A stretch of 64,000 bases of DNA from Minisyncoccota bacterium (GCA_035546035.1 DASZXC010000008.1:5202-69201); one strand, 5' to 3'; shown: positions 27,839 to 63,382, numbered from the stretch's first letter. Notes: generated by a model from the sequence alone, not told the origin. Made by a program: numbers and translations.

Positions 27839-30800
27839 TTAGCGGCGCAAAGCTATGCGAAACGAGTATTCTTCCACCTTCATTTCTTCAGCCTGCGGGA
27901 GATGGGCATGCTCTATGCCCGTGACGAGCGTTATCCTCTTTATATCGTGAAGGAACGCATGCGCGAGCTCTTTGCCCTTCTCATCCGAATCAAGGGCAAG
28001 GGAGACCTTGTCGTCCACGGTCAGATTCTCTTTCTTGCGAAGCTCCTGGACCGAGCGTATGAGGTCTCGGATCACGCCCTCCTTGCGGAGCCCTTCAGTC
28101 ACGTCCGTATCGAGAGCCGTTTCAGCGGCTATCGTATGGTCCACGCCGACGGCTTTGACGTTCACTTCGTCTTTGATGAGGTCGATGAGGTCGGCGCCCA
28201 GCGAGGCGTTCTTGATGACCAGCTTGGCGAGAGGCTGGCGGACCTTGATGTTCGCCTTCGATCGTTCCTGGAGAGCGATCGTCACGATCTTCCGCGTCTC
28301 TTCCATCGCCTTCACGATTTTTCCATCGACGGAGGCTTCTGCCGGCCAATCTGCGAGGTGTACGCTTTCGGGATCGTTCGAACGCCTGATACGGCTGAAG
28401 AGATAGTCGGCGTAGAAAGGAATGAAGGGCGCGGCTATTTTCGCGAATTCGGCGAGGACGAATCGGGTCGTGGAAAGAGCCGCCTCTTTGTCGGCGCGGT
28501 TGTCAGATTTGAATCGGTCGCGCGATCGGCGCAGGTACCACGTCGAAAGGTCGTCTACGAACGACATCAACGGTCGCGCGGCCTTATCGAGCTGATAGAA
28601 ATCGAGATATTCGGTCATCTCGTTTCTTGTCTCATTGAGGCGCGCGCGTATCCAGAGGTCAAGAACGCTCTTTGAATCGGTTCTCGATGCCTTTTCGCTC
28701 TCTCCCCTGTTCGCGTACATCTCATAGAAAGCGAGGACGTTGTCGAGGCGCTGGATGAGCTTCTTGGACACTTCGTCTACGCCTTTTTCAGAGAAGCAGA
28801 GGTCCTGAGCGGCCACGACCGGAGAGGAAAGCAGATAATAGCGGAGAGAGTCGGCGCCATATTTGCCGATGACTTCGAGCGGGTCGGGATAGTTATTGAG
28901 GCGCTTGGACATCTTCTCGCCGTCTTCAGCCAAGATGATGCCGTTCACGACGACGTTCTTGTACGGGCTCTTTCCGAAGAGACCGACGCCGAGGACCATC
29001 ATGGAATAGAACCAGCCGCGAGTCTGGTCTAGGCCTTCGGCGATGAAATCGGCGGGATAGCCCTTTACGCCGCCCAAAAGACCTCCAAGCCTGCCGTTCG
29101 GATCGAAATGCTCCAAAGCCTTGCCGCGATAGTTCGATTCGCCGTACGGCATCGAGCCCGATTCGAACCAACAGTCGAATACTTCCGCTACGCGGACAAG
29201 CTTTTCGCCGTCCGGCGCGACGCATTCGACCGTATCTATATACGGCCTATGGAGGTCGAGATCGAATCCCCTGTTATGCGGCAAGCGAACAAAGTCGAAC
29301 GGATGGCATTCGCCCGTTTTTTGGAAATAGCGGCGCTCGTCGTGGAGGATCTTGTCCTCGGACGCGGTCTCGCCTATCCCATGAAGGATCGTGTTCAGAG
29401 GCGAGCCGTGGCTCACGATGAGGATCTTCTTGCCCGAATATTTTCTATCTATATCGAACATCGCTTCGAAGACGCGCTTCTTCAAATCCACCGGCGTTTC
29501 CATACCCGGGAAGAGCCCGTGCGTGCGGACGTGACGATCCGTCTCGGCCCACAGCTTGCCTTCCCTGTCGGGACCGACGTTGTATTCGCGGAGGCGGACG
29601 TCATAGACGATCTCGTTCTCCGGTATGCCGCAGGCATCGGCTATCATGCGCGCCGTCTCTTTGGTGCGCTCGAAATCGGACGCGACGATGACGTCGACGC
29701 CTTGCGCGGCGATCTTTTTGGCGGCTTCAGCGATCTGCTGTCTGCCCTTTTCGGTGAGGCCGTAATTTTTGGAGAGACTTATGTTCGAATTCGAAACGCC
29801 GAGAGCGTTCGCCTTCGATTCGCCGTGGCGGATGAGCGTATATGAATTGCCTGATCGCTGTATGAGCTTCGCCAGATCGGATATACCCCCGATCGGATAG
29901 AGCTTGCCCGAATCGACTCCCTTCCAGACAGGGATAGGGGCGCCCCAGAAGCGCGAGCGCGATATGGCCCAGTCGCGGGCGCCTTCGAGCCATTTGCCGA
30001 AGCGCCCGTCGCGGATATCGTCCGGCGTCCAAGAGACTTTTTTGTTCGCAGCGACGAGCTTGTCCTTGAACAACGTGACGCGGACGAACCACGATGACGC
30101 AGCGTAATTGAGGAGCGGCGTGTCGCAGCGCCAGCAGTGGGGGTACGAGTGGACGATCTTCTTCTTGTCGAAGAGAAGGCCGTGATGAGCGAGCCATTTG
30201 ACAATCTCGATATCGGTCTTCTGATGACCGTCCTTTTCATCAGACTTGGGCTTGACCGGCTGACCCGCGAAATCGGCGACTTCCGGCTTGAACGTTCCGT
30301 TCATAGCCACGTGCTGGATGAAAGGCAGGTCGTTCGCCTGGCCGAGCTTCATGTCATCGTCGCCGAACGCCGGCGCTATATGCACGATGCCGGTACCGTC
30401 TTCGGTCGTGACGAAATCGGCGGCATATACCTTGAATCCGTTCTTTTCATCCTTGAGAGAGCCGTCGAGATAGTATGAGAACGCCGGCTCGTATCCGTCG
30501 CCGACGAGCTCGCGGCCCTTTATGACGGAGACGAGCGCGTGCTCCTTGCCCGCGAATACGTCGGCGACGCGGTCGCGCGCGACGATATATGTCGCATTCT
30601 CGTACGATACGCGGGCGTAATCGATATCAGCGCCTACGGCCAAGGCGACGTTTCCGGGAAGCGTCCACGGCGTCGTGGTCCAGGCGATGAAGTATTCATT
30701 CGGAGGAGTCCCCTTCCTCTTCATTTTGACGAATACGGATATGTCGGTGATGTCCTTGTATCCCTGATTCACCTCGAAATTGGCGAGCGTCGTCTCGCAT

Positions 30801-31363
30801 CGCGGACATATCTGCATAGACTTGAAGCCTTCGTAGACGAGACCTTTGTCGAAGAGCGTCTTGAACGCCCACCAGACGGACTGGGTGTATGCCGCGTCCA
30901 TGGTGCGATAGTCGTCATCCATGTCTACCCAGCGGCCGATGCGGGGTATGATCTTTCTCCAGTCATGGGCGTATCGAAGGACGCTCTCTTCCGCCACGGC
31001 ATTGAATCTCTCCATGCCGTAATCGACGATGTCTTTTCGCGATCTGAGGCCGAGCTCCTTTTCGACCAAGTTCTCTACCGGCAGGCCGTGACAGTCCCAG
31101 CCCCAGCGCCGCGCGACATGATACCCGCGCATAGTCTTGTAGCGCGGAACGGCGTCTTTGATGAACGAAGCCAGCATGTGGCCGTAATGTGGAAGGCCGT
31201 TCGCGAACGGCGGGCCGTCATAAAAGACGAATTCCTTGCCTTTTTTGTCGAGAGATTTCTGGAAGATCTCCTTTTCGTTCCAAAAAGAAAGTATCTTTTC
31301 CTCTATTTCGACCAGTTTGGTCTTCGGCTTGGTTTCCGGTTGGGTTTTGGGAGCGTCTGCCAT
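27839..31363 (-). CDS. ileS: Isoleucyl-tRNA synthetase (type 2) with an inserted histidine-phosphatase-like domain
   Basis: 1174 aa. PHYGH, WAISRSRFWGAPIPVW and KMSKR motifs are present. Confidence 0.9.
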   Translation of the reverse strand: MADAPKTQPETKPKTKLVEIEEKILSFWNEKEIFQKSLDKKGKEFVFYDGPPFANGLPHYGHMLASFIKDAVPRYKTMRGYHVARRWGWDCHGLPVENLVEKELGLRSRKDIVDYGMERFNAVAEESVLRYAHDWRKIIPRIGRWVDMDDDYRTMDAAYTQSVWWAFKTLFDKGLVYEGFKSMQICPRCETTLANFEVNQGYKDITDISVFVKMKRKGTPPNEYFIAWTTTPWTLPGNVALAVGADIDYARVSYENATYIVARDRVADVFAGKEHALVSVIKGRELVGDGYEPAFSYYLDGSLKDEKNGFKVYAADFVTTEDGTGIVHIAPAFGDDDMKLGQANDLPFIQHVAMNGTFKPEVADFAGQPVKPKSDEKDGHQKTDIEIVKWLAHHGLLFDKKKIVHSYPHCWRCDTPLLNYAASSWFVRVTLFKDKLVAANKKVSWTPDDIRDGRFGKWLEGARDWAISRSRFWGAPIPVWKGVDSGKLYPIGGISDLAKLIQRSGNSYTLIRHGESKANALGVSNSNISLSKNYGLTEKGRQQIAEAAKKIAAQGVDVIVASDFERTKETARMIADACGIPENEIVYDVRLREYNVGPDREGKLWAETDRHVRTHGLFPGMETPVDLKKRVFEAMFDIDRKYSGKKILIVSHGSPLNTILHGIGETASEDKILHDERRYFQKTGECHPFDFVRLPHNRGFDLDLHRPYIDTVECVAPDGEKLVRVAEVFDCWFESGSMPYGESNYRGKALEHFDPNGRLGGLLGGVKGYPADFIAEGLDQTRGWFYSMMVLGVGLFGKSPYKNVVVNGIILAEDGEKMSKRLNNYPDPLEVIGKYGADSLRYYLLSSPVVAAQDLCFSEKGVDEVSKKLIQRLDNVLAFYEMYANRGESEKASRTDSKSVLDLWIRARLNETRNEMTEYLDFYQLDKAARPLMSFVDDLSTWYLRRSRDRFKSDNRADKEAALSTTRFVLAEFAKIAAPFIPFYADYLFSRIRRSNDPESVHLADWPAEASVDGKIVKAMEETRKIVTIALQERSKANIKVRQPLAKLVIKNASLGADLIDLIKDEVNVKAVGVDHTIAAETALDTDVTEGLRKEGVIRDLIRSVQELRKKENLTVDDKVSLALDSDEKGKELAHAFLHDIKRITLVTGIEHAHLPQAEEMKVEEYSFRIALRR

Positions 31364-31417: not shown

Positions 31418-31969
31418 CTATGCGGAACCCTTGTATCGGACCATTATCGCGTCCGAGAGAAGCAGCTTATCGTCGAGAGGAGTGCTTATTTTTCGGAGGA
31501 ACAGCTTCCCTCTTTCGAGCGACAAGACTGCCGCGAACGCTCCTGACTGATTGAGCTGGTCGCGGCCATAAGCGACGATCCTGTGAAAGCGGAGGAACCT
31601 CCTGAGCGCGGCGCGATTGGCGAGATAGACGCCGAGGAGCTCGCGAACCGTCGCGTATTCCCGCGGAGACCTGATCGGGACGACGATCTCGTCGGTGCCG
31701 GGCATGGCCGTGAAGAGCCTATAGCGCGAATACTCGGAATATCCTCCCGATTTCTCGAAATCCTGGCGGATCCAGGCCTTAAGATATTCATCCGGATCTT
31801 CGACGCCGGACTGATCGAGGAGCGCCGGAAAATTATCGGTTCTTGGATTGACGCTCTGGTATTCCCGGGCGGCTTTCGCCTTTAAAGCTCTATCGAGCAG
31901 CTCTCCGACGTTATGAAAGGAATCTTGAGCGGAAGAATGTAAAGAGATCATATTCCCTTCCATTCTCAT
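31418..31969 (-). CDS. Hypothetical protein
   Basis: 183-aa ORF between argS and ileS on the same strand. No family recognised. Confidence 0.4.
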   Translation of the reverse strand: MRMEGNMISLHSSAQDSFHNVGELLDRALKAKAAREYQSVNPRTDNFPALLDQSGVEDPDEYLKAWIRQDFEKSGGYSEYSRYRLFTAMPGTDEIVVPIRSPREYATVRELLGVYLANRAALRRFLRFHRIVAYGRDQLNQSGAFAAVLSLERGKLFLRKISTPLDDKLLLSDAIMVRYKGSA

Positions 31970-31989: not shown

Positions 31990-33711
31990 CTACATCCTCT
32001 CCGGCACCTTCATGCCGAGGAGCTTCGCGCCGTTCACGAGCACGATGCGTACGGCCTGGGTCAGAGCGACCTTGTACGGCGATTCGCCGTCATCTTTGCC
32101 GACGATAGGCACGTTCGCATACCAGGAATTGAATACCGACGAGAGCTCGATGAGATACGTCGCGATGTGGTGCGGCGCCTCTTCGCGCGCCGATCGGCCG
32201 ACGACTTCAGGGAATCGGGCAAGCGCCTTTTCGAGAGGACCGACAATGACTCCCTTTCTTTCGATCCTCGGTTTCACGCCCTCTTTCTTCGCTTTATCCA
32301 AAACGGATTGAGCGCGGACGGCGGTATAGAGGAGATACGGGCCCGAATCGCCTTCGAACGATATGGACTTATCAAAATCATAGATGATATCCGACGACGT
32401 GACCTGTCGCAGGATCGAATATTTGATGGCGGCGACGGCGACGGCCTCGGTCGCCTCGGCCTTTTGCTTGTCGGTCATTTCGCGGGCCGCGAGCTTTTCC
32501 GTGACCATCTTTTCGACGTCGGCGATGAGCGACTCGCCCGTGATGACGTTGCCCTTTCGCGACGACATCTTGCCTTCGGCGAAGCGGAGCATGCCGTGGG
32601 CGATGTGCTTGGTTACCCGGGCGGCTTCAGGCTCGATGATCTCGAGCGCCTTCAGGACGACGCGGAAATAATCGCTCTGCTCGTTCGCGGTGATGATGAT
32701 AGACTCGTCAGGCCTGACCTTCTTCCATTTTTTGGTATTGAGGCCGAGCTCTTTCGTTTCATACGTCGGAATGCCCTGCGAGTTTATGAATACGCGGGTG
32801 TGGAGCTTTGGATCGTATCTCTCGCCCTTAAATACCGTCGCGCCGTCAGATTTTTCGAATACGCCTTTGCCCAGCCACTCTTCGACGAGCGCCACGCCGT
32901 CATGCGCGACCTCGGATTCGAGATAGAAATAGTCGAATTTGGTGCCGAGCTTTTCATATATGCCGTCGAAATGATCGAGGCTCCATTTCTTGCCGAGCTT
33001 ATAGAGCTTCATGAGCTTGCGCTCCTTTCCTTCGAAGACTTTCTTGTTGATCGCTTCGATCACCTCTTTTGCCGCGGGATCGTCTTCGAACGCGCGCGAG
33101 CCTTCGACGTATGAAGCGCCGAGGAATGCGATGCGCTCCTCTAGAGGAGCGCGCTTCGATGGCATACTCGCCTCGTTCTTCTGCATCGCCCAAAGAGCCT
33201 TGGCTACGTGCATGCCGAAATCGCCCTGATAGCACATGCGGCGGATCTTGGCGCCCTGCGACGCAGTGAGGCGCGCGATCGATTCGCCGATAGCGTTCGA
33301 CATGAGGTGACCGATATGGAATTCCTTGAACGGATTCGGATCGGTGTATTCGATGAGCACTTTCCTGCCTCTCCATTCGTTCGAATTGCCGTAGAGATCT
33401 TTACGCTTGAGTATCGTTTCGAGCTCTTTCGTATAGAAACTCGACGCCAAATAGAAATTGACGAAGCCGGGACCGGCGACGTCTATCCTTTCGACCGATT
33501 CGATGTGCTGGGCGCGCAAAGCCTCTGCGAGCTTCATGCCGAGCTCGCGCGGATTCTGTTTGGCCTGCTTCGCGAGAGCCATCGCCACGTTCGTCGCAAA
33601 ATCGCCGTTCGCGGCGTCGGCAGGATGCTCGATGACGATCTCGCCGGCGGACATGCCGAGAGATTTCAGAGCGCCCTCTATTCCCGTCCGTATCTTAGTC
33701 TCTATATCCAT
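31990..33711 (-). CDS. argS: Arginyl-tRNA synthetase
   Basis: 573 aa. ArgRS N-terminal domain, HIGH (FHIGHL) and a KMSK-like region. Confidence 0.9.
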   Translation of the reverse strand: MDIETKIRTGIEGALKSLGMSAGEIVIEHPADAANGDFATNVAMALAKQAKQNPRELGMKLAEALRAQHIESVERIDVAGPGFVNFYLASSFYTKELETILKRKDLYGNSNEWRGRKVLIEYTDPNPFKEFHIGHLMSNAIGESIARLTASQGAKIRRMCYQGDFGMHVAKALWAMQKNEASMPSKRAPLEERIAFLGASYVEGSRAFEDDPAAKEVIEAINKKVFEGKERKLMKLYKLGKKWSLDHFDGIYEKLGTKFDYFYLESEVAHDGVALVEEWLGKGVFEKSDGATVFKGERYDPKLHTRVFINSQGIPTYETKELGLNTKKWKKVRPDESIIITANEQSDYFRVVLKALEIIEPEAARVTKHIAHGMLRFAEGKMSSRKGNVITGESLIADVEKMVTEKLAAREMTDKQKAEATEAVAVAAIKYSILRQVTSSDIIYDFDKSISFEGDSGPYLLYTAVRAQSVLDKAKKEGVKPRIERKGVIVGPLEKALARFPEVVGRSAREEAPHHIATYLIELSSVFNSWYANVPIVGKDDGESPYKVALTQAVRIVLVNGAKLLGMKVPERM

Positions 33712-33712
33712 A

Positions 33713-34147
33713 TTATTTTCCGGTGCTTCCGAAGCCTCGCTCGCCGCGCGCGGATTCGGAGAGCCCGCCTTCCTTCACTTCCTTGAACTCAACCTCTTCA
33801 TACGAATGGATGATCATCTGCGCTACCTTGTCGCCCGGCTCGAATATATGGGTCTCTTTGCCGAGATTCATGACGCCGACCTTTACTTCGCCCCTGTAGC
33901 CCGAATCTATTACGTTTCCATATGTGATGATACCGTGTTTGAACGAAAGGCCCGATTTTTCATATATGATCCCGACGCAACCCTTTGGAATCTCCATTTT
34001 GAGCCCCGTATTGATGGAAGCGCGTTCCATAGGCGCGAGCGTGATCTTTTCGCCTACGTAAAGGTCGAAGCCCGCATCGCCCGGAAGCGCGTATCGAGGC
34101 ACCGGCACGCCCTCGCGCATGAGGATTATTTTGAGGGTCTTTTTCAT
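33713..34147 (-). CDS. dut: dUTP diphosphatase
   Basis: 144 aa with dUTPase motifs (GDAGFDL, IDSGYRGEV, RGERGFGSTG). Confidence 0.9.
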   Translation of the reverse strand: MKKTLKIILMREGVPVPRYALPGDAGFDLYVGEKITLAPMERASINTGLKMEIPKGCVGIIYEKSGLSFKHGIITYGNVIDSGYRGEVKVGVMNLGKETHIFEPGDKVAQMIIHSYEEVEFKEVKEGGLSESARGERGFGSTGK

Positions 34148-34848
34148 TATTTCAGTATATAGGACGAGAGCATCGAATCAACCTCCGCGAAGACTTCGTC
34201 TTTCGAGCGATTCGCGTCAACGAACCTGACCTCTCCGGGGAAAAGCTTTCCGAAGGTTCGATACGCTTTCATGACTCGCTCGTGAAAATCGCGCTTACGC
34301 TCGTCGAAATGGTTTATCTCGCCCTTTCGTGCGGCAACGCGGCGGGCGCCTTCCTTCGGATCGACTTCTAGGATTATATGAAGATCGGGACGGATATTTT
34401 TATACACGGCCTTTCGCACTGCGAAGAAAAGTTTTTTGACGTTATATCCGCCCTCCTGCCCGCCTATCTGATAGCCCCATGACGTCGAATCGGATCGGTC
34501 GGTGACGAAATGTCTTCCGGAAGCGATGACCTCCTCGGCTTTTCTTGCCATATGATCGGCGCGACCGGCGGATACGAGCAGGAATTGCGTGATCGCATTG
34601 GCTTCTTTCGCATATTTCGACTGGAGCATCACGGCGCGAATCTCTTCAGCATACGGCGTGCCGCCAGGCTCTCGCGAGAATTCGATCGCGGGATATTTTC
34701 CCTTGAGCCTCTCTATGACCGTGCCCTTTCCCGATCCTTCGCCTCCGTCTATAACGATGAAATAGCCTTCCGAGGGATCATGCCTCTTGAATGCCTTGGA
34801 TATGGCGTTCGTTAAAAAGACTTTCGAGTAGAGAAACGCCGTTCTCAT
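34147..34848 (-). CDS. tmk: Thymidylate kinase
   Basis: 233 aa. P-loop IDGGEGSGKGT. REPGGT. An N-terminal extension of about 30 aa. Confidence 0.8.
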   Translation of the reverse strand: MRTAFLYSKVFLTNAISKAFKRHDPSEGYFIVIDGGEGSGKGTVIERLKGKYPAIEFSREPGGTPYAEEIRAVMLQSKYAKEANAITQFLLVSAGRADHMARKAEEVIASGRHFVTDRSDSTSWGYQIGGQEGGYNVKKLFFAVRKAVYKNIRPDLHIILEVDPKEGARRVAARKGEINHFDERKRDFHERVMKAYRTFGKLFPGEVRFVDANRSKDEVFAEVDSMLSSYILK

Positions 34849-34849
34849 G

Positions 34850-36019
34850 TTATTTCGCCCGCAAGACCCTATCTATCTGCTTCGCGAGGACGATCATGTC
34901 TTTCTCTTTCTTGCCGCGCGTGGTCTCACCAGCAGTACCGAGTCTGATACCTGATGGATCAACAGGCGGTCGCGCATCGAACGGAATGGCGTTCTTGTTC
35001 ACGATTATGCCGGCCTTTTCGAGCTTATCGGACGCTTCCCTGCCGCTGACACCCTGTGATGCCACGTCGAGAAGTATCAGATGGCTGTCAGTGCCGCCTG
35101 AAATGACCCTCCAGCCGAGCTTTACGAGCTCTGCAGCCAGCGTCCGCGCGTTTTTAATGACTTGCGCGGCATATTTTTTGAATGCGGGAGACGCAGCTTC
35201 TCTCAGGGCCACGGCGATGGCGGCCGTCTGATTCATATGAGGGCCGCCCTGGAGACCCGGGAATATAGCCTTGTCTATCTTCTTGTTGAGCTCGCGGGCG
35301 TCCTTTTTCGCGAAGACGAGAGCGCCGCGCGGGCCGCGGAGCGTCTTATGGGTCGTGGTCGTGACAATGTCGGCAAACGGGAATGGCGACGGATATGCCT
35401 TGCCCGCGACGAGACCCGCGATATGGGACATGTCGACCATGAGATATGCGCCGCACGCATCGGCGATCTCGCGAAATCTCTTCCAGTCGACGATACGCGG
35501 ATACGCCGTGAAGCCGGCGATGATCATCTTCGGCTTTTCGCGCAGAGCGATATCGCGCAACTCCGCATAGTCGAGGACTTCGGTTTCTTTCGAAACGCCA
35601 TATGGCACCTGGGTCCAGAATTTGCCCGTGGCAGAGACTTTATGGCCGTGAGTCAGATGTCCGCCTTGATCCAAAGACATGCCCATGACCTTTTCTCCTT
35701 TTTCCAAAAGCGCGACGTATACAGAGAGATTCGCCGGCGAACCGGATAATGCCTGCGTGTTTACATGCCATTCCTCCGGGTTAAGGCCGAATAACTTGAG
35801 AGCACGTTCAGCGGCCATGTCCTCTACCTTATCCACGATCGCATTGCCGCCGTAATAGCGCTTACCCGAATAACCTTCGGCATATTTATTCGTGAGCTCG
35901 GAACCGAGAGCGTCGAGTACGTCCTTCGACACATAGTTCTCCGACGCGATGAGATTGACGACCGATTTCTGCCTCTTCTGCTCCGCCTTGATCAGCTTTT
36001 CTGCCTGTTTGTCTTTCAT
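34850..36019 (-). CDS. glyA: Serine hydroxymethyltransferase
   Basis: 389 aa. LIASENY. The PLP-lysine region THKTLRGPRG. Confidence 0.95.
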   Translation of the reverse strand: MKDKQAEKLIKAEQKRQKSVVNLIASENYVSKDVLDALGSELTNKYAEGYSGKRYYGGNAIVDKVEDMAAERALKLFGLNPEEWHVNTQALSGSPANLSVYVALLEKGEKVMGMSLDQGGHLTHGHKVSATGKFWTQVPYGVSKETEVLDYAELRDIALREKPKMIIAGFTAYPRIVDWKRFREIADACGAYLMVDMSHIAGLVAGKAYPSPFPFADIVTTTTHKTLRGPRGALVFAKKDARELNKKIDKAIFPGLQGGPHMNQTAAIAVALREAASPAFKKYAAQVIKNARTLAAELVKLGWRVISGGTDSHLILLDVASQGVSGREASDKLEKAGIIVNKNAIPFDARPPVDPSGIRLGTAGETTRGKKEKDMIVLAKQIDRVLRAK

Positions 36020-36045
36020 AAGCCCATTCTATTACAATAAGCAGC

Positions 36046-37341
36046 ATGAGAGAAATCATCATCGTAGACGACCTTTCACCGGAGCCTGGAGCGATGGTGC
36101 AAGCGCTTTATTCCCGCGATCCCCGCAGCGTCAAAGACCATTTGGTCCAAGTCCGCGAGAAAGGCGCCGAGAAATTCATGTCATCGTATTACGTCGGCTA
36201 TGGGCACAAGTCCATCGGCGACTGCGGCACGACGTCTATATTCGCCGAGAACGTTTCGATGCTCGTCGCCAAGGCTATCCAGGATTGGCCTTTGTATAAC
36301 GGCCAGGAAGCCTCGACGCGATATCTCGATATGGCTGCGCAAGAAGTCGTCGATCCTGTCGGCACCCCTGACAGCAAGGCTATCCAGGACGAATGGATGC
36401 GATTCTATCGCTATGCCCTCGACAAGCTCGTGCCTGTCCTGAAACAGCGCTTCCCTATCCAGCCCGAACAGAAGGAGACAGTATATGAGAAAGCGGTCAA
36501 AGCTCGCGCATTCGACATCGCCCGCGGCTTCCTGCCTGCCGGCGTAACGACGTACGCCGCATGGCACACCAACCTCCGCCAGGCATACGATCACATCAAA
36601 GAGATGCGCCACCATCCATTGGCCGAAGTGCGCGAGACTGCCGCTTTGATCCATGACGAGCTCAAGAAAAAATATGCGTCGAGCTTCTCCCACAAGGAAT
36701 ATCCGATGGAAGAAGCATATGTCGAGGAGAGCATGAGGCAATTCGCGTTCTTCGACGATGCGGAAGCTGTCAAAGGGTTCTCATATGACGCGCGCATGCT
36801 CGACCTGAACGGCCTCGCAAAGCACCAGAAGCTCCTCGCCGAGAGGCCTGCGAAGGCAGAATTGCATCAGCGCATGCGCCAGTACGGCAATATAGTATTC
36901 GCTTTCCCTCTCGATTTCGGCTCGTACCGCGACCTTCAGCGCCACCGAAGCTGCATCCAGGAGATGCCCCTTCTCTCTACCCGTCACGGCTTCTATCCGT
37001 GGTATCTCGAACAGCTCCCTGAAGACCTGCGCGGCGAAGCCGTAAAGGTATTAAAGGAACAGGAAGATCGCATCGCGAGACTCGATGCGACGCCCGAGAT
37101 CAGGCAATATTACATCGCCATGGGATACACCGTTGCCGTAAAGATGACCGCGCCGCTTCCCGCAGCCGTCTATACCGCCGAATTACGCTCGTCGGACACC
37201 GTACACCCGACGCTTCGCGTCCAAGCGCAGAGGATGGGTGACGCGATCAAGGAAGCCGTTCCCGGCATCGCCATGCATCACGATCTGACGCCTGGCACCT
37301 GGAACATCAAGCGCGGCAATCACGATATCGTGAAGAAATAA
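36046..37341 (+). CDS. thyX: FAD-dependent thymidylate synthase ThyX-like, tandem duplication of two ThyX-like domains
   Basis: 431 aa. Domain 1 (about aa 1-212) has the ThyX-like ...NGQEASTRY block, but DWP sits where RHR is expected. Domain 2 (about aa 213-431) has RHR (aa 298-300, DLQRHRSCIQ) with a divergent downstream motif. Confidence 0.55.
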   Translation: MREIIIVDDLSPEPGAMVQALYSRDPRSVKDHLVQVREKGAEKFMSSYYVGYGHKSIGDCGTTSIFAENVSMLVAKAIQDWPLYNGQEASTRYLDMAAQEVVDPVGTPDSKAIQDEWMRFYRYALDKLVPVLKQRFPIQPEQKETVYEKAVKARAFDIARGFLPAGVTTYAAWHTNLRQAYDHIKEMRHHPLAEVRETAALIHDELKKKYASSFSHKEYPMEEAYVEESMRQFAFFDDAEAVKGFSYDARMLDLNGLAKHQKLLAERPAKAELHQRMRQYGNIVFAFPLDFGSYRDLQRHRSCIQEMPLLSTRHGFYPWYLEQLPEDLRGEAVKVLKEQEDRIARLDATPEIRQYYIAMGYTVAVKMTAPLPAAVYTAELRSSDTVHPTLRVQAQRMGDAIKEAVPGIAMHHDLTPGTWNIKRGNHDIVKK

Positions 37342-37387
37342 TTGACTGGATTCAAAGCCTCCTGTAGGGTGCAGTGAGAATTAAACC

Positions 37388-37395
37388 AAAGGAGG
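37388..37395 (+). promoter_or_regulatory. Shine-Dalgarno (aaaggagg) 6 nt upstream of ATG at 37402
   Basis: Direct reading of the sequence. Confidence 0.5.
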
Positions 37396-37401
37396 TTTGA
37401 A

Positions 37402-37845
37402 ATGGAAAAACTGAAAGTCTACGTCGCCCTGTCTCTGACCCATGTGAAGACGGAAGCGGAGAAAGACGAGGTTCGAGCATTCATGAAATGGCTCCCGGCG
37501 ACATTCGACGTCGAGATCCTGAAATGGGCGTTCGACCTCGAACGCTGGGAGCCCCAACCCGTTGCGGACATCTACGCATACGACACCGAGCGCGTAAAGG
37601 CCGCGGACCTCATGATCGTCCTGTATCTTTCGAACGACGGTTCGGACGGCCGCGGCGGCGAAGTCGTCAATCGGGTCGAGAACGGCGGCGGAAAGCCTGT
37701 CCTCGGCTTTGCCCGGGAAGGCGTGAGAGTGAGCCGCTATGCGGCCGACTGCCTGAAGGGAGCCGGAACGCCTATCCGGACTTTCAAGGAGTTCTCGGAA
37801 ACGGGACCTGCCATTTCCGAAGCCCTCGATCGCCTCCGCCGATGA
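37402..37845 (+). CDS. Nucleoside 2-deoxyribosyltransferase / DNPH1(Rcl)-like protein
   Basis: 147 aa with a Rossmann-like pattern: KVYVALSL..., ADLMIVLYLSNDGSDGRGGEV (candidate catalytic Glu), GKPVLGF. It is embedded in the dTMP cluster. Confidence 0.4.
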   Translation: MEKLKVYVALSLTHVKTEAEKDEVRAFMKWLPATFDVEILKWAFDLERWEPQPVADIYAYDTERVKAADLMIVLYLSNDGSDGRGGEVVNRVENGGGKPVLGFAREGVRVSRYAADCLKGAGTPIRTFKEFSETGPAISEALDRLRR

Positions 37846-37855
37846 TATCCGGAAT

Positions 37856-37886
37856 GCGAAGCCGCCCTTTCGAGGGCGGCTTTTTA
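37856..37886. terminator. Bidirectional terminator between the NDT-like gene (+) and dCMP deaminase (-)
   Basis: gccgccct ttcg agggcggc followed by ttttt. Confidence 0.55.
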
Positions 37887-38435
37887 TTATTTCATATTCG
37901 GATAGGTCTCTACCGACGGATCGACGATATCGAGCTTTACGCCCGCCTCCTTAAAGACCTCCTTGGAGCGCTTCGATGCATGATAGTCTTTAGCGGCCAC
38001 AACGCGGATGATGCCTGAATTTATCAGGATCTTCGCGCAGGTATAGCAGGGCGTCATATGGCAATAGAGCGTCGCGCCGTTCACCGGGACGCCGTCGCGC
38101 GCGGCATTGGCGATAGCGTTCTGCTCGGCATGGGTCGTCCTGATGCAGTGTTTCGACTGCGAGCCGTCTTCATGGACGACCGTGTGCATCTCGTGCCCGG
38201 CTTCGTCGCAGTGAGCGACGCCTGCCGGAGCGCCGACATAGCCGGTGACGAGTATGCGCTTGTCTTTGACGATGACGCAACCGGAACGGCCGCGATCGCA
38301 GGTTGCCCTCTCGCCTACCACGTCGGATATCTTGATAAAATATCCGTCCCACGACGGACGGACATGTTTCGCAGTGACCGGAGAAGGAATCGCCGCGGCT
38401 TTTTTCATGGTTTTCGCTTTGGAGCTTTTTGCCAT
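37887..38435 (-). CDS. dCMP deaminase (cytidine/deoxycytidylate deaminase family)
   Basis: 182 aa with the HAEQNAI and PCYTCAKIL zinc-binding motifs. Confidence 0.85.
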   Translation of the reverse strand: MAKSSKAKTMKKAAAIPSPVTAKHVRPSWDGYFIKISDVVGERATCDRGRSGCVIVKDKRILVTGYVGAPAGVAHCDEAGHEMHTVVHEDGSQSKHCIRTTHAEQNAIANAARDGVPVNGATLYCHMTPCYTCAKILINSGIIRVVAAKDYHASKRSKEVFKEAGVKLDIVDPSVETYPNMK

Positions 38436-38462
38436 GCCCGAATCATACCTTTGTTTGGATAA

Positions 38463-38490
38463 AGAAAAAAGCCTGCTCCGGAGAGCAGGC
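38463..38490 (-). terminator. Minus-strand intrinsic terminator just upstream of the dCMP deaminase start
   Basis: agcctgctc cggaga gcaggct. On the minus strand it is followed by ttttttcttt. Confidence 0.5.
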
Positions 38491-38723
38491 TCGAGAAAAG
38501 GTTATTTGGGGGCCGTGACAGAATCGGCGCGAAGCGGCGGCGACGGAGCTATGGGCGGAACGTGCCCGCCCATCTCCCACGCGGCAAGAGCCGCCAAGCC
38601 TTCGAGCGCGCTTTTGTTCATCACCGAGAGAAGCGGTTTCGCCGGGGAATCGTGCAAAGGGGCATGTGTTTCATTCATAAAGAGGATCATTCGATGAAAG
38701 TATATCATCGCCGAAAGCACAGT

Positions 38724-38762
38724 AAAAAGCCGCGGGTCACTTCCGTGATCCGCGGCTTTTTG
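38724..38762. terminator. Bidirectional terminator-like hairpin
   Basis: aaaaagccgcgg ... ccgcggcttttt. Confidence 0.5.
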
Positions 38763-38763
38763 G

Positions 38764-39096
38764 TTAGTTCGCCGGATCGAGCCAATCGAACGGCACAGCA
38801 AAGCGCCGTCCGCTGCCCGTCCTGCGTTCCGATTGTCGGGGCCAAGACGGCCCGGAGACATCGCTCGCAGCGACGAAGACCTCGACCGTCAGACGGTCGG
38901 GGGCGATCATCGCGGGCATCGAGCGATGCTCGCTCACCGCGCGGGCGATCACCTTCTCCTTTGTCGCCGCTACAGACGGGGCGGCAACGAGAGGCGTGCC
39001 TGCGAGAAGCAAGAACAGCAGTCGAGGAGCAATCACAAAAGGGAGAATACGCCTCTTCCCCGTTTCTTGCAAGCCAGGCCGTGTTGATGAAGACAA
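38764..39096 (-). CDS. Candidate small secreted protein (TTG start), uncertain
   Basis: 110 aa with a signal-peptide-like N-terminus (KRRILPFVIAPRLLFLLLAGTPLVAAPSVAA). The stop lies immediately before the 38724-38762 hairpin. The start is non-ATG and falls inside a hairpin. Confidence 0.3.
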   Translation of the reverse strand: MSSSTRPGLQETGKRRILPFVIAPRLLFLLLAGTPLVAAPSVAATKEKVIARAVSEHRSMPAMIAPDRLTVEVFVAASDVSGPSWPRQSERRTGSGRRFAVPFDWLDPAN

Positions 39097-39148
39097 GAGG
39101 GCTCCGGAGGATCCTCTACATCCGAGTGGATCTTCCGGAGCCCTCTTG
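39094..39148 (-). terminator. Long hairpin immediately 3' of the rplK stop (end of the secE-nusG-rplK unit)
   Basis: 20-bp stem caagagggctccggaggatc / gatcttccggagccctcttg with one mismatch. The plus side is followed by ttttttattt. Confidence 0.5.
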
Positions 39149-39152
39149 TTTT

Positions 39153-41214: not shown

Positions 41215-42090
41215 TTACTCGGGTTTTTCCGCCGAGACCATAAGATTATCAAATAATGCCAGAACAGTCATCGGTCCGACGCCGCCGGGCACGGGAGAGA
41301 TGACTGAAACGATATCCGATACGGCCGCGAAATCGACGTCGCCAGCGAGAGATCGCTTCGGGATCCCTTCTTCCGATTTCGCTCCGGCGACGCTGTTGAT
41401 GCCGACATCGACGACGATGGCGCTCTTTTTTATGAAATCTTTGGTGACGTACGAAGGCTTGCCGATGGCGACGGCGACGATATCGGCTTCGCGGCTTATC
41501 CTCTGAGGCTCGGCTGTTTGAGAATGGATGACGGATACCCTCGCGCCCCTCGATTGAAAAAGTGACGCTATAGGGCCGCCGACGAGGCGCGATCGGCCGA
41601 ATACAGCGGCATTCTTCCCTCTTACGGAGATGTTATAGAAATCGAGGAGCATCATGACGCCCTTCGCGGTAGCGGGAATAAAACGCGGATTGCCCTGTTC
41701 GAGAAGCTTTTGGTTCTCGTCCGTGAGCCCGTCAACGTCTTTTTTCGGATCTATCGCATTTATAAGGGCAAGCTTATTGATATGCGCAGGCACCGGGAGC
41801 TGGACGATGATGCCGTGGATCTTTTTGTCGGCATTAAGAGCGACGATCTCCTCCAAGACGCCGTCCTGCGATGCATCTTCAGAGAATCGAACGTGCTCGA
41901 CCGATACGCCTATGGCCGCGGCGAATTTCTTCTTTTGCTCTATATATATGCTCGATTCCGGATTGTCGCCGATCTGGATTATGGCGAGACATGGCTTGAT
42001 ATGGCGCTTTCTTTCGAACGCGGTAACCCTTTCGGCGAGCTTCGCCTTGTGAAAATCGCGGGCTTTTTTTCCGTCGAGGAGTAATGGCAT
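41215..42090 (-). CDS. folD: Bifunctional methylenetetrahydrofolate dehydrogenase/cyclohydrolase
   Basis: 291 aa, FolD throughout (e.g. GRSRLVG). Confidence 0.9.
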   Translation of the reverse strand: MPLLLDGKKARDFHKAKLAERVTAFERKRHIKPCLAIIQIGDNPESSIYIEQKKKFAAAIGVSVEHVRFSEDASQDGVLEEIVALNADKKIHGIIVQLPVPAHINKLALINAIDPKKDVDGLTDENQKLLEQGNPRFIPATAKGVMMLLDFYNISVRGKNAAVFGRSRLVGGPIASLFQSRGARVSVIHSQTAEPQRISREADIVAVAIGKPSYVTKDFIKKSAIVVDVGINSVAGAKSEEGIPKRSLAGDVDFAAVSDIVSVISPVPGGVGPMTVLALFDNLMVSAEKPE

Positions 42091-52099: not shown

Positions 52100-52172
52100 G
52101 GGTGCCTAATGGGAATCGAACCCATGACGCCGGGACCACAATCCAGCGTTTTACCACTAAACTATAGGCACC
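52100..52172 (-). tRNA. tRNA-His (anticodon GTG) with genomically encoded G-1
   Basis: Manual fold. Extra 5' G opposite discriminator C. Acceptor GTGCCTA/TAGGCAC. Anticodon loop UUGUGGU. T-arm ATGGG/CCCAT. Confidence 0.7.
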
Positions 52173-52182
52173 ATTCTTTTGG

Positions 52183-52218
52183 AAAAGCACCGAACGGACG
52201 TACCGCTCGGTGCTTTTT
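52183..52218. terminator. Hairpin plus T-run between tRNA-His and tRNA-Leu
   Basis: agcaccga ... tcggtgct followed by ttttt. Confidence 0.45.
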
Positions 52219-52223
52219 CCGTG

Positions 52224-52305
52224 TGCGCGGAAGAGGACTTGAACCTCCATGCCTTGCGGCGCTACCACCTCAAGGTAGTGTGTCTGCCAATTCCACCATC
52301 CGCGC
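52224..52305 (-). tRNA. tRNA-Leu (anticodon GAG)
   Basis: Manual fold. Acceptor GCGCGGA/TCCGCGC with discriminator A. Long variable arm. Anticodon loop UUGAGGU. Confidence 0.7.
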
Positions 52306-52377
52306 ATCTATGACCGCGTGGCCATAATAGCCGAGAGCGTCCTCAAAATCAAATCCCGCGCGATGCGCGGGATTTTG

Positions 52378-52794
52378 TTACTTTGCCGGAACCGCTTCCG
52401 CCTTCGGAGCCTCTGCAAGAGGCACAGGCTCTTCCTTTGCCGTACGGAGGTTTCGCATCTGGCGACGGACTGCCTTCGCTGCCTTCTCGCGTACGAAGTA
52501 GAGCTTCGAGCGGCGCACCTTCGAGCGGCGGATCACTTCGATCTCGTCGATCATAGGGGTGTAGAGCGGGAAAATCCTCTCTACGCCGACGCCGTCGATG
52601 ACTTTTCGGACGGTGAACGTAGCACCCGGCTCGTCGCCGTGCTTTCGCGAGAGGATAAGGCCTTCGAACGCCTGGAGGCGGCTCTTGTCGCCTTCCTTGA
52701 TCTTCTGCCAGACGCGGACGGTGTCGCCGGATCGGAGGCCGAGCTTCACTCGAGCCGCCATGTCCACAGGAGAAGTGATGATTTTGCTTTCCAT
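52378..52794 (-). CDS. rplS: 50S ribosomal protein L19
   Basis: 138 aa. GDTVRVWQKIKEGDKSRLQAFEG...TFTVRKV..GVGVERIFPL...IEVIRRSKVRRSKLYF. Confidence 0.9.
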   Translation of the reverse strand: MESKIITSPVDMAARVKLGLRSGDTVRVWQKIKEGDKSRLQAFEGLILSRKHGDEPGATFTVRKVIDGVGVERIFPLYTPMIDEIEVIRRSKVRRSKLYFVREKAAKAVRRQMRNLRTAKEEPVPLAEAPKAEAVPAK

Positions 52795-52912
52795 GCTGGT
52801 AATTTCTTGGTCTTTAAACGTGGACGTTAATCTAACACACGGCCTTAATTATCGCAAGAAAGTTGAGTTTTTAGGCGAAATTGGGTATCTTTGCTACGCG
52901 GTTGCTTCATAT

Positions 52913-52988
52913 GCGCCCTTAGCTCAGTTGGTAGAGCAGCTCATTTACACTGAGAAGGTCGGGGGTTCAAGTCCCTCAGGGCGCACCA
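52913..52988 (+). tRNA. tRNA-Val (anticodon TAC), CCA encoded
   Basis: Manual fold. Acceptor GCGCCCT/AGGGCGC with discriminator A and CCA. Anticodon loop UUUACAC. Confidence 0.8.
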
Positions 52989-52998
52989 GAGAGAAGGC

Positions 52999-53035
52999 GC
53001 GAAAAAGCCCGGCGTACGCCGGGCTTTTTCGCGCA
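52999..53035. terminator. Perfect palindromic bidirectional terminator
   Basis: gcgaaaaagcccggcg ta cgccgggctttttcgc. Confidence 0.6.
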
Positions 53036-53037
53036 TG

Positions 53038-53109
53038 TCCCCTCGGTTGGAATCGAACCAACATAACCGGCTTAGAAGTCCGGTGTTCTATCCATTGAAC
53101 TACAAGGGG
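53038..53109 (-). tRNA. tRNA-Arg (anticodon TCT)
   Basis: Manual fold. D-arm GTTC/GAAC. Anticodon loop CUUCUAA. T-arm GTTGG/CCAAC. Acceptor CCCCTTG/CGAGGGG, which implies an unusual C1:G72 pair. Confidence 0.55.
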
Positions 53110-57653: not shown

Positions 57654-57662
57654 AGATTCGAG

Positions 57663-57749
57663 CGGATGGGGTGAGATTCGAACTCACGGTCCCCTTGCGA
57701 GGACGACAGTTTTCAAGACTGTTCCGTTAGACCGCTCCGGCACCCATCC
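57663..57749 (-). tRNA. tRNA-Ser (anticodon TGA)
   Basis: Manual fold. Acceptor GGATGGG/CCCATCC with discriminator G. Long variable arm. Anticodon loop CUUGAAA. Confidence 0.7.
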
Positions 57750-57790
57750 GTGCCTCAACGTTACAACATATGATGCTATAATCAAGGGCG

Positions 57791-58246
57791 ATGAAAGAGT
57801 TCAGGTGGCAGACCCTCGAATACGTCTATAGCGAGAAAAGCTCCGACTGGTATTGGACCGTCGGGATCGTTTCCGTCGCGATCGCCGTCGTCGCCGTCAT
57901 ATTCGGAGACGCGCTCTTCGGCGTCGTGGTCGCGATCGGCGCGTTCTCGCTCACCATGCTCTCCTCGCGCCAGCCGAAAACAATATCGGTCGAGGTGACC
58001 GACAAGGGCGTCGCGATAGACAAAACCCTGTATCCGTATCCTGCCCTCGACGCGTTTTCGGTGGATGAAGACCATCATCACGGACCGAGGCTCCTCCTTA
58101 AGTCCAAGAAGGTCGTCATGCCCCTCATAACGGTTCAGGTCGCGACAGACCCCGACGCTCTGCGCGCGTTTCTCGTCACGCACCTCAAGCAGGAAACTTT
58201 CGACCAGGGCATCCTACACGCGGCCCTCGAAAGGATCGGATTCTGA
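57791..58246 (+). CDS. Hypothetical membrane protein
   Basis: 151 aa with two TM helices near the N-terminus. Confidence 0.4.
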   Translation: MKEFRWQTLEYVYSEKSSDWYWTVGIVSVAIAVVAVIFGDALFGVVVAIGAFSLTMLSSRQPKTISVEVTDKGVAIDKTLYPYPALDAFSVDEDHHHGPRLLLKSKKVVMPLITVQVATDPDALRAFLVTHLKQETFDQGILHAALERIGF

Positions 58247-58291
58247 ATCTCCTTTTACTTTTCGCGATTTTCCTGTAAGTTAGTCTGGCAC

Positions 58292-58366
58292 GCTCTCGTC
58301 GTTCAATGGATAGGACACTTCCCTGCGAAGGAAGAAATCCAGGTTCGATTCCTGGCGGGAGCACCA
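58292..58366 (+). tRNA. tRNA-Arg (anticodon GCG), CCA encoded
   Basis: Manual fold. Acceptor GCTCTCG/CGGGAGC with discriminator A and CCA. Anticodon stem CTTCC/GGAAG. Anticodon loop CUGCGAA. Confidence 0.6.
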
Positions 58367-63302: not shown

Positions 63303-63309
63303 TTCGATG

Positions 63310-63382
63310 TCCGCCCACCAGGAATCGAACCTGGGACCATCTCCTTAAAAGGGAGCTGCTCTACCGACTGAGCTATGGGCGG
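63310..63382 (-). tRNA. tRNA-Lys (anticodon TTT)
   Basis: Manual fold. D-arm GCTC/GAGC. Anticodon loop CUUUUAA. T-arm CCAGG/CCTGG. Acceptor CCGCCCA/TGGGCGG with discriminator A, giving an unusual C1:G72. Confidence 0.65.

Follow-up and report, generated by a model that had tools for sequence, protein, structure and literature searches.

A conserved thymidylate-supply cluster of Paceibacterota that includes a predicted DNPH1-like deoxynucleotide N-glycosidase gene

Human and rat DNPH1 (Rcl) are N-hydrolases of 5-hydroxymethyl-dUMP (hmdUMP) and of 2'-deoxynucleoside 5'-monophosphates (dNMPs). Structures of DNPH1 place the catalytic triad at Y24, D80 and E104 and show the 5'-phosphate held by S98 together with S128' of the partner subunit (PMC10603095, PMC10483697). 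Comparable enzymes are MilB and BlsM of Streptomyces, which are CMP and hydroxymethyl-CMP N-glycosidases, the nucleoside 2'-deoxyribosyltransferases (NDTs; Lactobacillus leichmannii NDT/PDT, family PF05014), and DmtZ of Z-genome phages, a DNPH1-like dAMP N-glycosidase whose gene lies next to, or is fused with, a dUTPase-family gene (PMC12884076). Here we describe a 147-residue protein of this kind encoded at positions 37402-37845 on the plus strand of a 64,000-nucleotide stretch of DNA from a Minisyncoccota bacterium (GCA_035546035.1 DASZXC010000008.1:5202-69201); this whole stretch is called the window, and positions are counted from its first letter. The identical protein sequence appears under locus tag VHE10_01455, annotated as hypothetical, in a metagenome-assembled genome of Candidatus Paceibacterota. 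We newly characterise it as a divergent, rare, thyX-linked protein of the DNPH1/MilB type that is predicted, from its sequence, to be a dNMP N-glycosidase. The reading that we hold to be probable is that the region combines a conserved thymidylate module with a predicted DNPH1-like dNMP N-glycosidase tied to dUMP/dTMP metabolism. The open reading frames (ORFs) of the window were listed and then scanned against Pfam and NCBIfam with the curated thresholds of these collections (gathering scores, and equivalog or subfamily cutoffs).

Fold and active-site residues of the 147-residue protein

The predicted model of the 147-residue protein (predicted local distance difference test score 94.7) gave its best matches to MilB, NDTs and DNPH1, and on the basis of this model the protein has the NDT/DNPH1 fold. 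Sequence comparisons were made with reference sequences identical to PDB chains (4p5e for human DNPH1 and 1f8x for L. leichmannii NDT). When a widened family alignment (A3) was compared with these over the whole length by hhalign, the probability was 96.7% to human DNPH1 and 92% to NDT; the identity between the window protein and human or rat DNPH1 in the profile alignment was about 16%. The hhalign comparison aligned Y7 of the window protein with Y24 of human DNPH1 and Y7 of NDT, D61 with D80 and D72, and E87 with E104 and E98, and it placed S81 and S111 at the positions of DNPH1 S98 and S128. All three triad residues were invariant in the 21 close relatives, and the serines were kept nearly as strictly (S81 in 21 and S111 in 20 of the 21). 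Among the wider relatives (n = 53) the tyrosine was kept in 48, the aspartate in 42 and the glutamate in 48.

The family is rare. It comprised 21 clusters at 90% identity among 5.8 billion proteins, a profile search detected 58 representatives at E <= 1e-3 among 1.84 billion proteins, and only 3 of 185,579 GTDB species genomes contained a member. PF05014 was matched at E <= 0.01 by 22 of the 53 profile-detected relatives, the best with E = 4.7e-9, and the more distant profile relatives have the classical P-S-x-G-x-G-x-E loop. The loop of the window protein is G80-S-D-G-R-G-G-E87, with D82, R84 and R91 invariant in the family, whereas DNPH1 has PSLGVGYELG; H14 and W49 are invariant in the family as well. 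One distant relative of 250 residues (P0189) has, on the N-terminal side of the full domain, a further incomplete NDT/DNPH1-like segment whose loop reads S-Q-P-A-T-G-L-G-I-E-I-G, and it may represent a tandem or fused family member. The window protein itself had no at-threshold match in Pfam, NCBIfam, PHROGs or PADLOC. A phage or defence origin was considered and rejected, since neither PADLOC nor PHROGs gave a match and a tblastn search of 50,697 phage records found none.

The window protein shares with the NDTs the fold, the glutamate nucleophile and the tyrosine and aspartate helpers, and it might accordingly be taken for a true nucleoside 2'-deoxyribosyltransferase that swaps bases on deoxynucleosides for salvage. 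We consider this unlikely on several grounds. Ser81 aligns with Asp92 of the D-x-G-x-G-x-E loop of NDT (1f8x sequence), a residue that presumably contacts the 5'-hydroxyl; the serine is like the phosphate-binding S98 of DNPH1 and S97 of MilB, which argues for a nucleotide over a nucleoside substrate. The second phosphate serine is kept too (S111, equivalent to S128'), the C-terminal tyrosine that NDTs insert into the partner site is lacking, the alignment stopping before that tyrosine, and the scores to MilB and DNPH1 equal or exceed those to NDTs. The initial annotation had suggested an unusual salvage or degradation branch at the level of dNMPs or deoxynucleosides. The protein looks like a 5'-monophosphate N-glycosidase, whereas a nucleoside transferase does not fit.

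The likeness to MilB raises a second alternative, in which the ThyX-like protein encoded upstream and the glycosidase would form a pair of the MilA/MilB kind, the first modifying a pyrimidine (ribo)nucleotide and the second freeing the modified base, with no part in dTMP supply. MilB has Phe17, which is associated with ribose preference, and Arg23, which takes part in substrate recognition, whereas Tyr7 and Thr13 stand at these positions in the window protein, pointing to deoxyribose substrates; a tyrosine in place of the phenylalanine accompanies a preference for deoxyribose (PMC10603095). MilB serves antibiotic biosynthesis, whereas the window protein is encoded in a housekeeping dTMP cluster. 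The long ThyX is found in thousands of Paceibacterota that have no glycosidase, flanked by dut, tmk, glyA and the dCMP deaminase gene, which fits a housekeeping dTMP synthase. We therefore regard a MilA/MilB-like pair as improbable.

Several results weigh against a DNPH1-like N-glycosidase tied to the thymidylate genes. The window protein scored 12.8 bits against PF05014 (Nuc_deoxyrib_tr, clan Nribosyltransf; threshold 28.8, E = 0.13), so that its earlier description as NDT/DNPH1-like is upheld by the fold and the catalytic triad but not by the family threshold. Searches of PDB sequences with phmmer and with a profile gave no useful match, and hhalign with the close-family alignment (A1) gave no signal to DNPH1 or NDT, the link being made by the widened alignment alone. 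The base-recognition residues H56 and R30 of DNPH1 are replaced by W42 and T13, both invariant in the family; the substrate is therefore not transferable by homology, the base specificity likely differs and is not predictable, and the protein is not to be classed as a DNPH1 orthologue. With W42, T13/H14 and W49, the base pocket is unlike those of DNPH1 and MilB. One homologue (P0019, locus L005) is encoded outside any nucleotide cluster.

Genomic context and proposed activity

In the window and in five further loci (L002, L004, L008, L015 and L016), with identities of 37-65%, the gene for the 147-residue protein was found directly 3' of thyX and on the same strand, and in these loci it was convergent with the dCMP deaminase gene wherever the contig extended that far. 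In relatives that do not have the gene, thyX is directly convergent with the dCMP deaminase gene, so that the gene for the 147-residue protein was inserted into a pre-existing module; it is a lineage-restricted addition. In a rearranged locus (L003, 36% identical) the gene lies between genes for dihydrofolate reductase (DHFR) and a dCTP-deaminase (DCD)-family protein, beside thyX, glyA and tmk, and a fragment (L014) again showed a DCD neighbour. That the gene stays with thymidylate and deoxycytidylate-deaminase genes despite rearrangement is good evidence of a functional link. The contexts of the distant relatives P0161, P0165 and P0150 came from short contigs and were informative only for the DCD fragment of L014. 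In the divergent subgroup P0021/P0150 (L003, 135-3293; L014, 730-909) the gene is convergent with a PF22769 DCD gene and not with a dCMP deaminase gene, and the cluster of L003 contains no dut.

The order argS-dut-tmk-glyA, divergent from thyX and followed by the dCMP deaminase gene, small ORFs and rplK-nusG-secE, also occurs in L002, L004, L007, L008, L015 and L016, and it is present with insertions in L006. Since the order recurs in related loci, the grouping is not a matter of chance, and since these are related genomes, the cluster is ordinary for Paceibacterota and no peculiarity of the source genome; it is a conserved arrangement of the clade and probably ancestral. The initial annotation had considered the grouping unusually tight. 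The cluster is real, but the synteny comparison makes it the standard arrangement in Paceibacterota: the region is a conserved thymidylate-supply module of this clade and, beyond the gene for the 147-residue protein and the long thyX, ordinary housekeeping. The folD gene lies 3 kb further on (41215-42090, minus strand; PF02882 and PF00763 both match), as had been noted earlier, but it is not at the equivalent place in L001, L004, L006 and L007, so that its closeness in the window is probably incidental.

The same comparison bears on the possibility that the clustering reflects inherited gene order only and that the gene for the 147-residue protein is a neutral insertion. A core order that is simply conserved across the clade, the unconserved closeness of folD and the homologue that sits elsewhere would all suit such an explanation. 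Against it stand the rearranged L003, in which the gene is kept with thyX, DCD, DHFR, glyA and tmk, and the strong purifying selection at the predicted active-site residues of the family, and we judge a neutral insertion improbable. A TIR/SLOG-like or regulatory flavodoxin-fold protein (NAD-cleaving or ligand-sensing, for example) that stands in the cluster by chance appears very improbable.

The activity, substrate and physiological role that we propose for the predicted N-glycosidase are inferred from what the analysis shows, namely the fold, the conservation of catalytic and phosphate residues and the synteny. The enzyme would hydrolyse a 2'-deoxynucleoside 5'-monophosphate by a double displacement of the DNPH1 type, with Glu87 as the nucleophile, Tyr7 and Asp61 assisting and Ser81 and Ser111 gripping the phosphate, and the products would be the free base and deoxyribose 5-phosphate. 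The neighbouring genes, thyX and that of a cytosine-deoxynucleotide deaminase, favour a dUMP-type nucleotide as the presumed substrate. One candidate is a non-canonical nucleotide, for instance hmdUMP, which would arise when scavenged modified dCMP is deaminated, and in this case the enzyme would be a pool sanitiser; humans have a parallel in the DCTD-DNPH1 axis. The other candidate is dUMP or dTMP itself, the enzyme then serving as a catabolic or overflow valve.

We propose, as a tentative and rather less likely extension, that the protein represents an undescribed bacterial DNPH1-like branch, which together with dCMP deaminase and ThyX would make a prokaryotic version of the DCTD-DNPH1 pool-sanitising axis. 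Scavenged modified deoxycytidylates, for instance 5-hydroxymethyl-dCMP of phage or other foreign origin, would be converted by deamination into nucleotides of the hmdUMP type, and the glycosidase would destroy these before they could enter DNA; alternatively, the glycosidase would clear side-products of ThyX. If this were true, a scavenging-dependent symbiont would be protected from base-modified nucleotides. Bacteria of the candidate phyla radiation (CPR)/Patescibacteria rely on scavenged nucleotides, and a dNMP N-glycosidase in a thymidylate operon would be a testable step of quality control or catabolism. It would also bring bacterial proteins with another kind of base pocket into the DNPH1 enzyme type, which currently attracts attention as a cancer target in humans. 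The setting differs from that of human and rat DNPH1 in that the window protein is bacterial (CPR) and encoded in a cluster with thyX and dCMP deaminase genes. A recent precedent is DmtZ, which is an NDT/DNPH1-fold dNMP glycosidase in a nucleotide-metabolism cluster and removes one specific dNMP (PMC12884076), but it belongs to another host and has other partner genes, and its base specificity presumably differs as well.

The long ThyX

The gene directly upstream of that for the 147-residue protein (36046-37341, plus strand) encodes a long ThyX-family protein of 431 residues. The relation to ThyX that had been proposed for it was confirmed by the domain search, in which Pfam Thy1 (PF02511) was matched with 60.2 bits against a threshold of 24.8, within residues 22-209 only, and the protein has the three-dimensional fold of ThyX. 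Database clusters of similar proteins, about 430 residues long, number more than 4500, and the named homologues are called 'FAD-dependent thymidylate synthase' and come from Paceibacterota, Taylorbacteria or Parcubacteria; the protein is thus the standard ThyX form of Paceibacterota and already annotated in databases. Our literature search found no paper on CPR or tandem ThyX. The 491-position phage profile phrog_36506, named 'thymidylate synthase', matched the N half (36046-36720) with E = 2e-11, which indicates that long ThyX forms occur in phages too and are not restricted to CPR.

Canonical homotetrameric ThyX, as in Thermotoga maritima (TM0449) and Mycobacterium tuberculosis, is half the length of the window protein and has the RHR motif in its Thy1 domain, whereas the window protein has RHR only in a degenerate C half. 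The N half (residues 1-225) is a clear Thy1 domain, which was aligned to Corynebacterium glutamicum ThyX through the family profile and to the PDB-verified T. maritima ThyX by hhalign. D80-W-P occupies the position where RHR is expected. Invariant equivalents were found for T. maritima residues H53, S88/R90/Y91 (S90-T-R92-Y93 in the window protein), R147 (R160) and N163/R165 (N176/R178). The C half (residues 226-431) contains R299-H-R301-S302, of which R299-x-R301-S302 is invariant across the family, a variable residue at the place where R90 would be, and an invariant E-L-R381...H387 that aligns by motif with the equivalents of R174/H178. The signature RHRxxS followed by SxRY therefore does not lie in one domain, and the new feature of this protein, as read from the alignments, is that the ThyX signature residues are divided between two halves.

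The C half gave weak, sub-threshold but collinear Thy1 matches in 4 of 11 members (E 0.004-0.09), and the secondary-structure pattern repeats across the two halves, so that a degenerate second ThyX domain appears plausible. The initial annotation had spoken of a duplicated thyX. There is one ORF and not two genes, and 'duplicated' can therefore only refer to an internal two-domain architecture, in which sense the term is partly justified, with weak evidence for the C half. This two-half architecture is internal, highly asymmetric and common to thousands of CPR proteins.

An attractive model, which we think probably correct, is that the long ThyX would be a fused pseudo-dimer whose halves have lost complementary residues. 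The C half would contribute the RHR motif and the equivalents of R174/H178 to the active-site residues of the N half, and two long-ThyX chains could rebuild a ThyX-like tetramer having fewer complete active sites. Such a split-signature protein offers a test, made by nature, of how many among the four active sites of ThyX are required. Other results count against a thymidylate synthase of this design. The TIGR02170 thyX equivalog was not reached (22.1 bits against 87.9). In comparison with PDB sequences, phmmer found no solved structure and the profile search returned only a marginal match to C. glutamicum ThyX. By hhalign the N half gave no signal to the C half, nor did the C half to T. maritima ThyX, and with a hidden Markov model of the C half the scores of T. 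maritima and C. glutamicum ThyX did not stand out from those of 3000 shuffled sequences, so that an internal duplication is not demonstrable by sequence. The model also depends on the assignment of ThyX active-site residues to subunits, which we assume to be as in the T. maritima structures.

Layout of the cluster and neighbouring features

All the genes named in the initial annotation, dut, tmk, glyA, the ThyX-like gene, that of the 147-residue protein, the dCMP deaminase gene and folD, were recovered as ORFs at the positions reported there, most with products above family thresholds. The predicted route from dCMP and dUTP through dUMP and dTMP to dTDP, with its one-carbon supply, is likewise supported by the established functions of the gene families, from which the flow of the pathway was inferred. 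dCMP deaminase and dUTPase would yield dUMP, the long ThyX would methylate it to dTMP with 5,10-methylenetetrahydrofolate (CH2-THF), serine hydroxymethyltransferase (SHMT) would recharge tetrahydrofolate (THF) to CH2-THF, and Tmk would phosphorylate dTMP to dTDP. The product of ThyX is THF and not dihydrofolate, so that DHFR is not required.

On the minus strand glyA, tmk, dut and argS follow each other with neighbours 0-1 bases apart or overlapping by one base. The SHMT gene glyA, whose product regenerates CH2-THF, occupies 34850-36019 (PF00464, E = 4e-160; NF000586, 533 bits against 335). The gene tmk for dTMP kinase (dTMP to dTDP) lies at 34147-34848 (PF02223, E = 4.5e-28; TIGR00041, 104.5 bits against 83.25), and its stop shares base 34147 with the start of dut, which encodes a trimeric-type dUTPase forming dUMP and pyrophosphate from dUTP (33713-34147; PF00692, E = 9e-30; NF001862, 134.4 bits against a cutoff of 103). 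The products of all three genes scored above NCBIfam equivalog or subfamily cutoffs. One base from the stop of dut is argS for arginyl-tRNA synthetase, an ORF of 573 codons at 31990-33711, and Arg_tRNA_synt_N, tRNA-synt_1d and DALR_1 domains were found at the equivalent position in L004, L007 and L016. About 26 additional N-terminal residues precede the P-loop of the dTMP kinase, the Pfam match beginning at residue 33, and the lengths in relatives are similar (233 residues in L002, a 237-residue ORF in L008, 234 in L015 and 232 in L016).

Only 26 bp separate glyA from the divergent ORF of the long ThyX, which is followed on the same strand, after 60 bases, by that of the 147-residue protein; a terminator scan found no terminator-like site between these two. 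A strong terminator-like hairpin with an 11-bp stem and a T tract (37858-37883) stands between the latter ORF and the convergent gene for a dCMP deaminase of the ComEB/DCTD type (dCMP to dUMP; 37887-38435, minus strand). This protein matched PF00383 with 76.8 bits against 25 (E = 1.3e-21) and its translation contains the zinc motifs HAE (THAEQN) and PCxxC (PCYTC); it scored below the ComEB equivalog TIGR02571 (115 bits against a cutoff of 219). Rfam and ARAGORN detected no RNA elements in the cluster.

On the way from the cluster to folD, an interval of about 700 bp that lacks a conserved ORF comes first, and rplK-nusG-secE and a SIMPL gene come next. For this interval (38436-39152, from the dCMP deaminase gene to rplK), tblastx found no ORF conserved with related loci and Rfam gave no match; it contains a promoter-like site on the minus strand (38726-38699) and a strong terminator-like hairpin (38492-38469, minus strand) that lies directly upstream of the start of the deaminase gene and right after the stop of a doubtful 119-residue ORF. 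A leader, or a small gene missed by annotation, could account for this interval.

Beyond argS, an ORF of 183 codons (31418-31969, minus strand) between ileS and argS had no match in Pfam, NCBIfam, PHROGs or PADLOC, and L007 has an unannotated 165-residue ORF at the corresponding place. The isoleucyl-tRNA synthetase encoded by ileS (27839-31363, minus strand, 1174 residues) has a PF00300 His_Phos_1 domain (97.6 bits, residues 509-664) inserted inside its class-I catalytic domain; the RHGES motif is visible in the insert, and the same architecture is present in L007, a Taylorbacteria locus. Across the whole window no Rfam family other than tRNA was found, and the seven tRNA genes (His, Leu, Val, Arg-TCT, Ser, Arg-GCG and Lys) lie at 52100-53109, 57662-58366 and 63309-63382.

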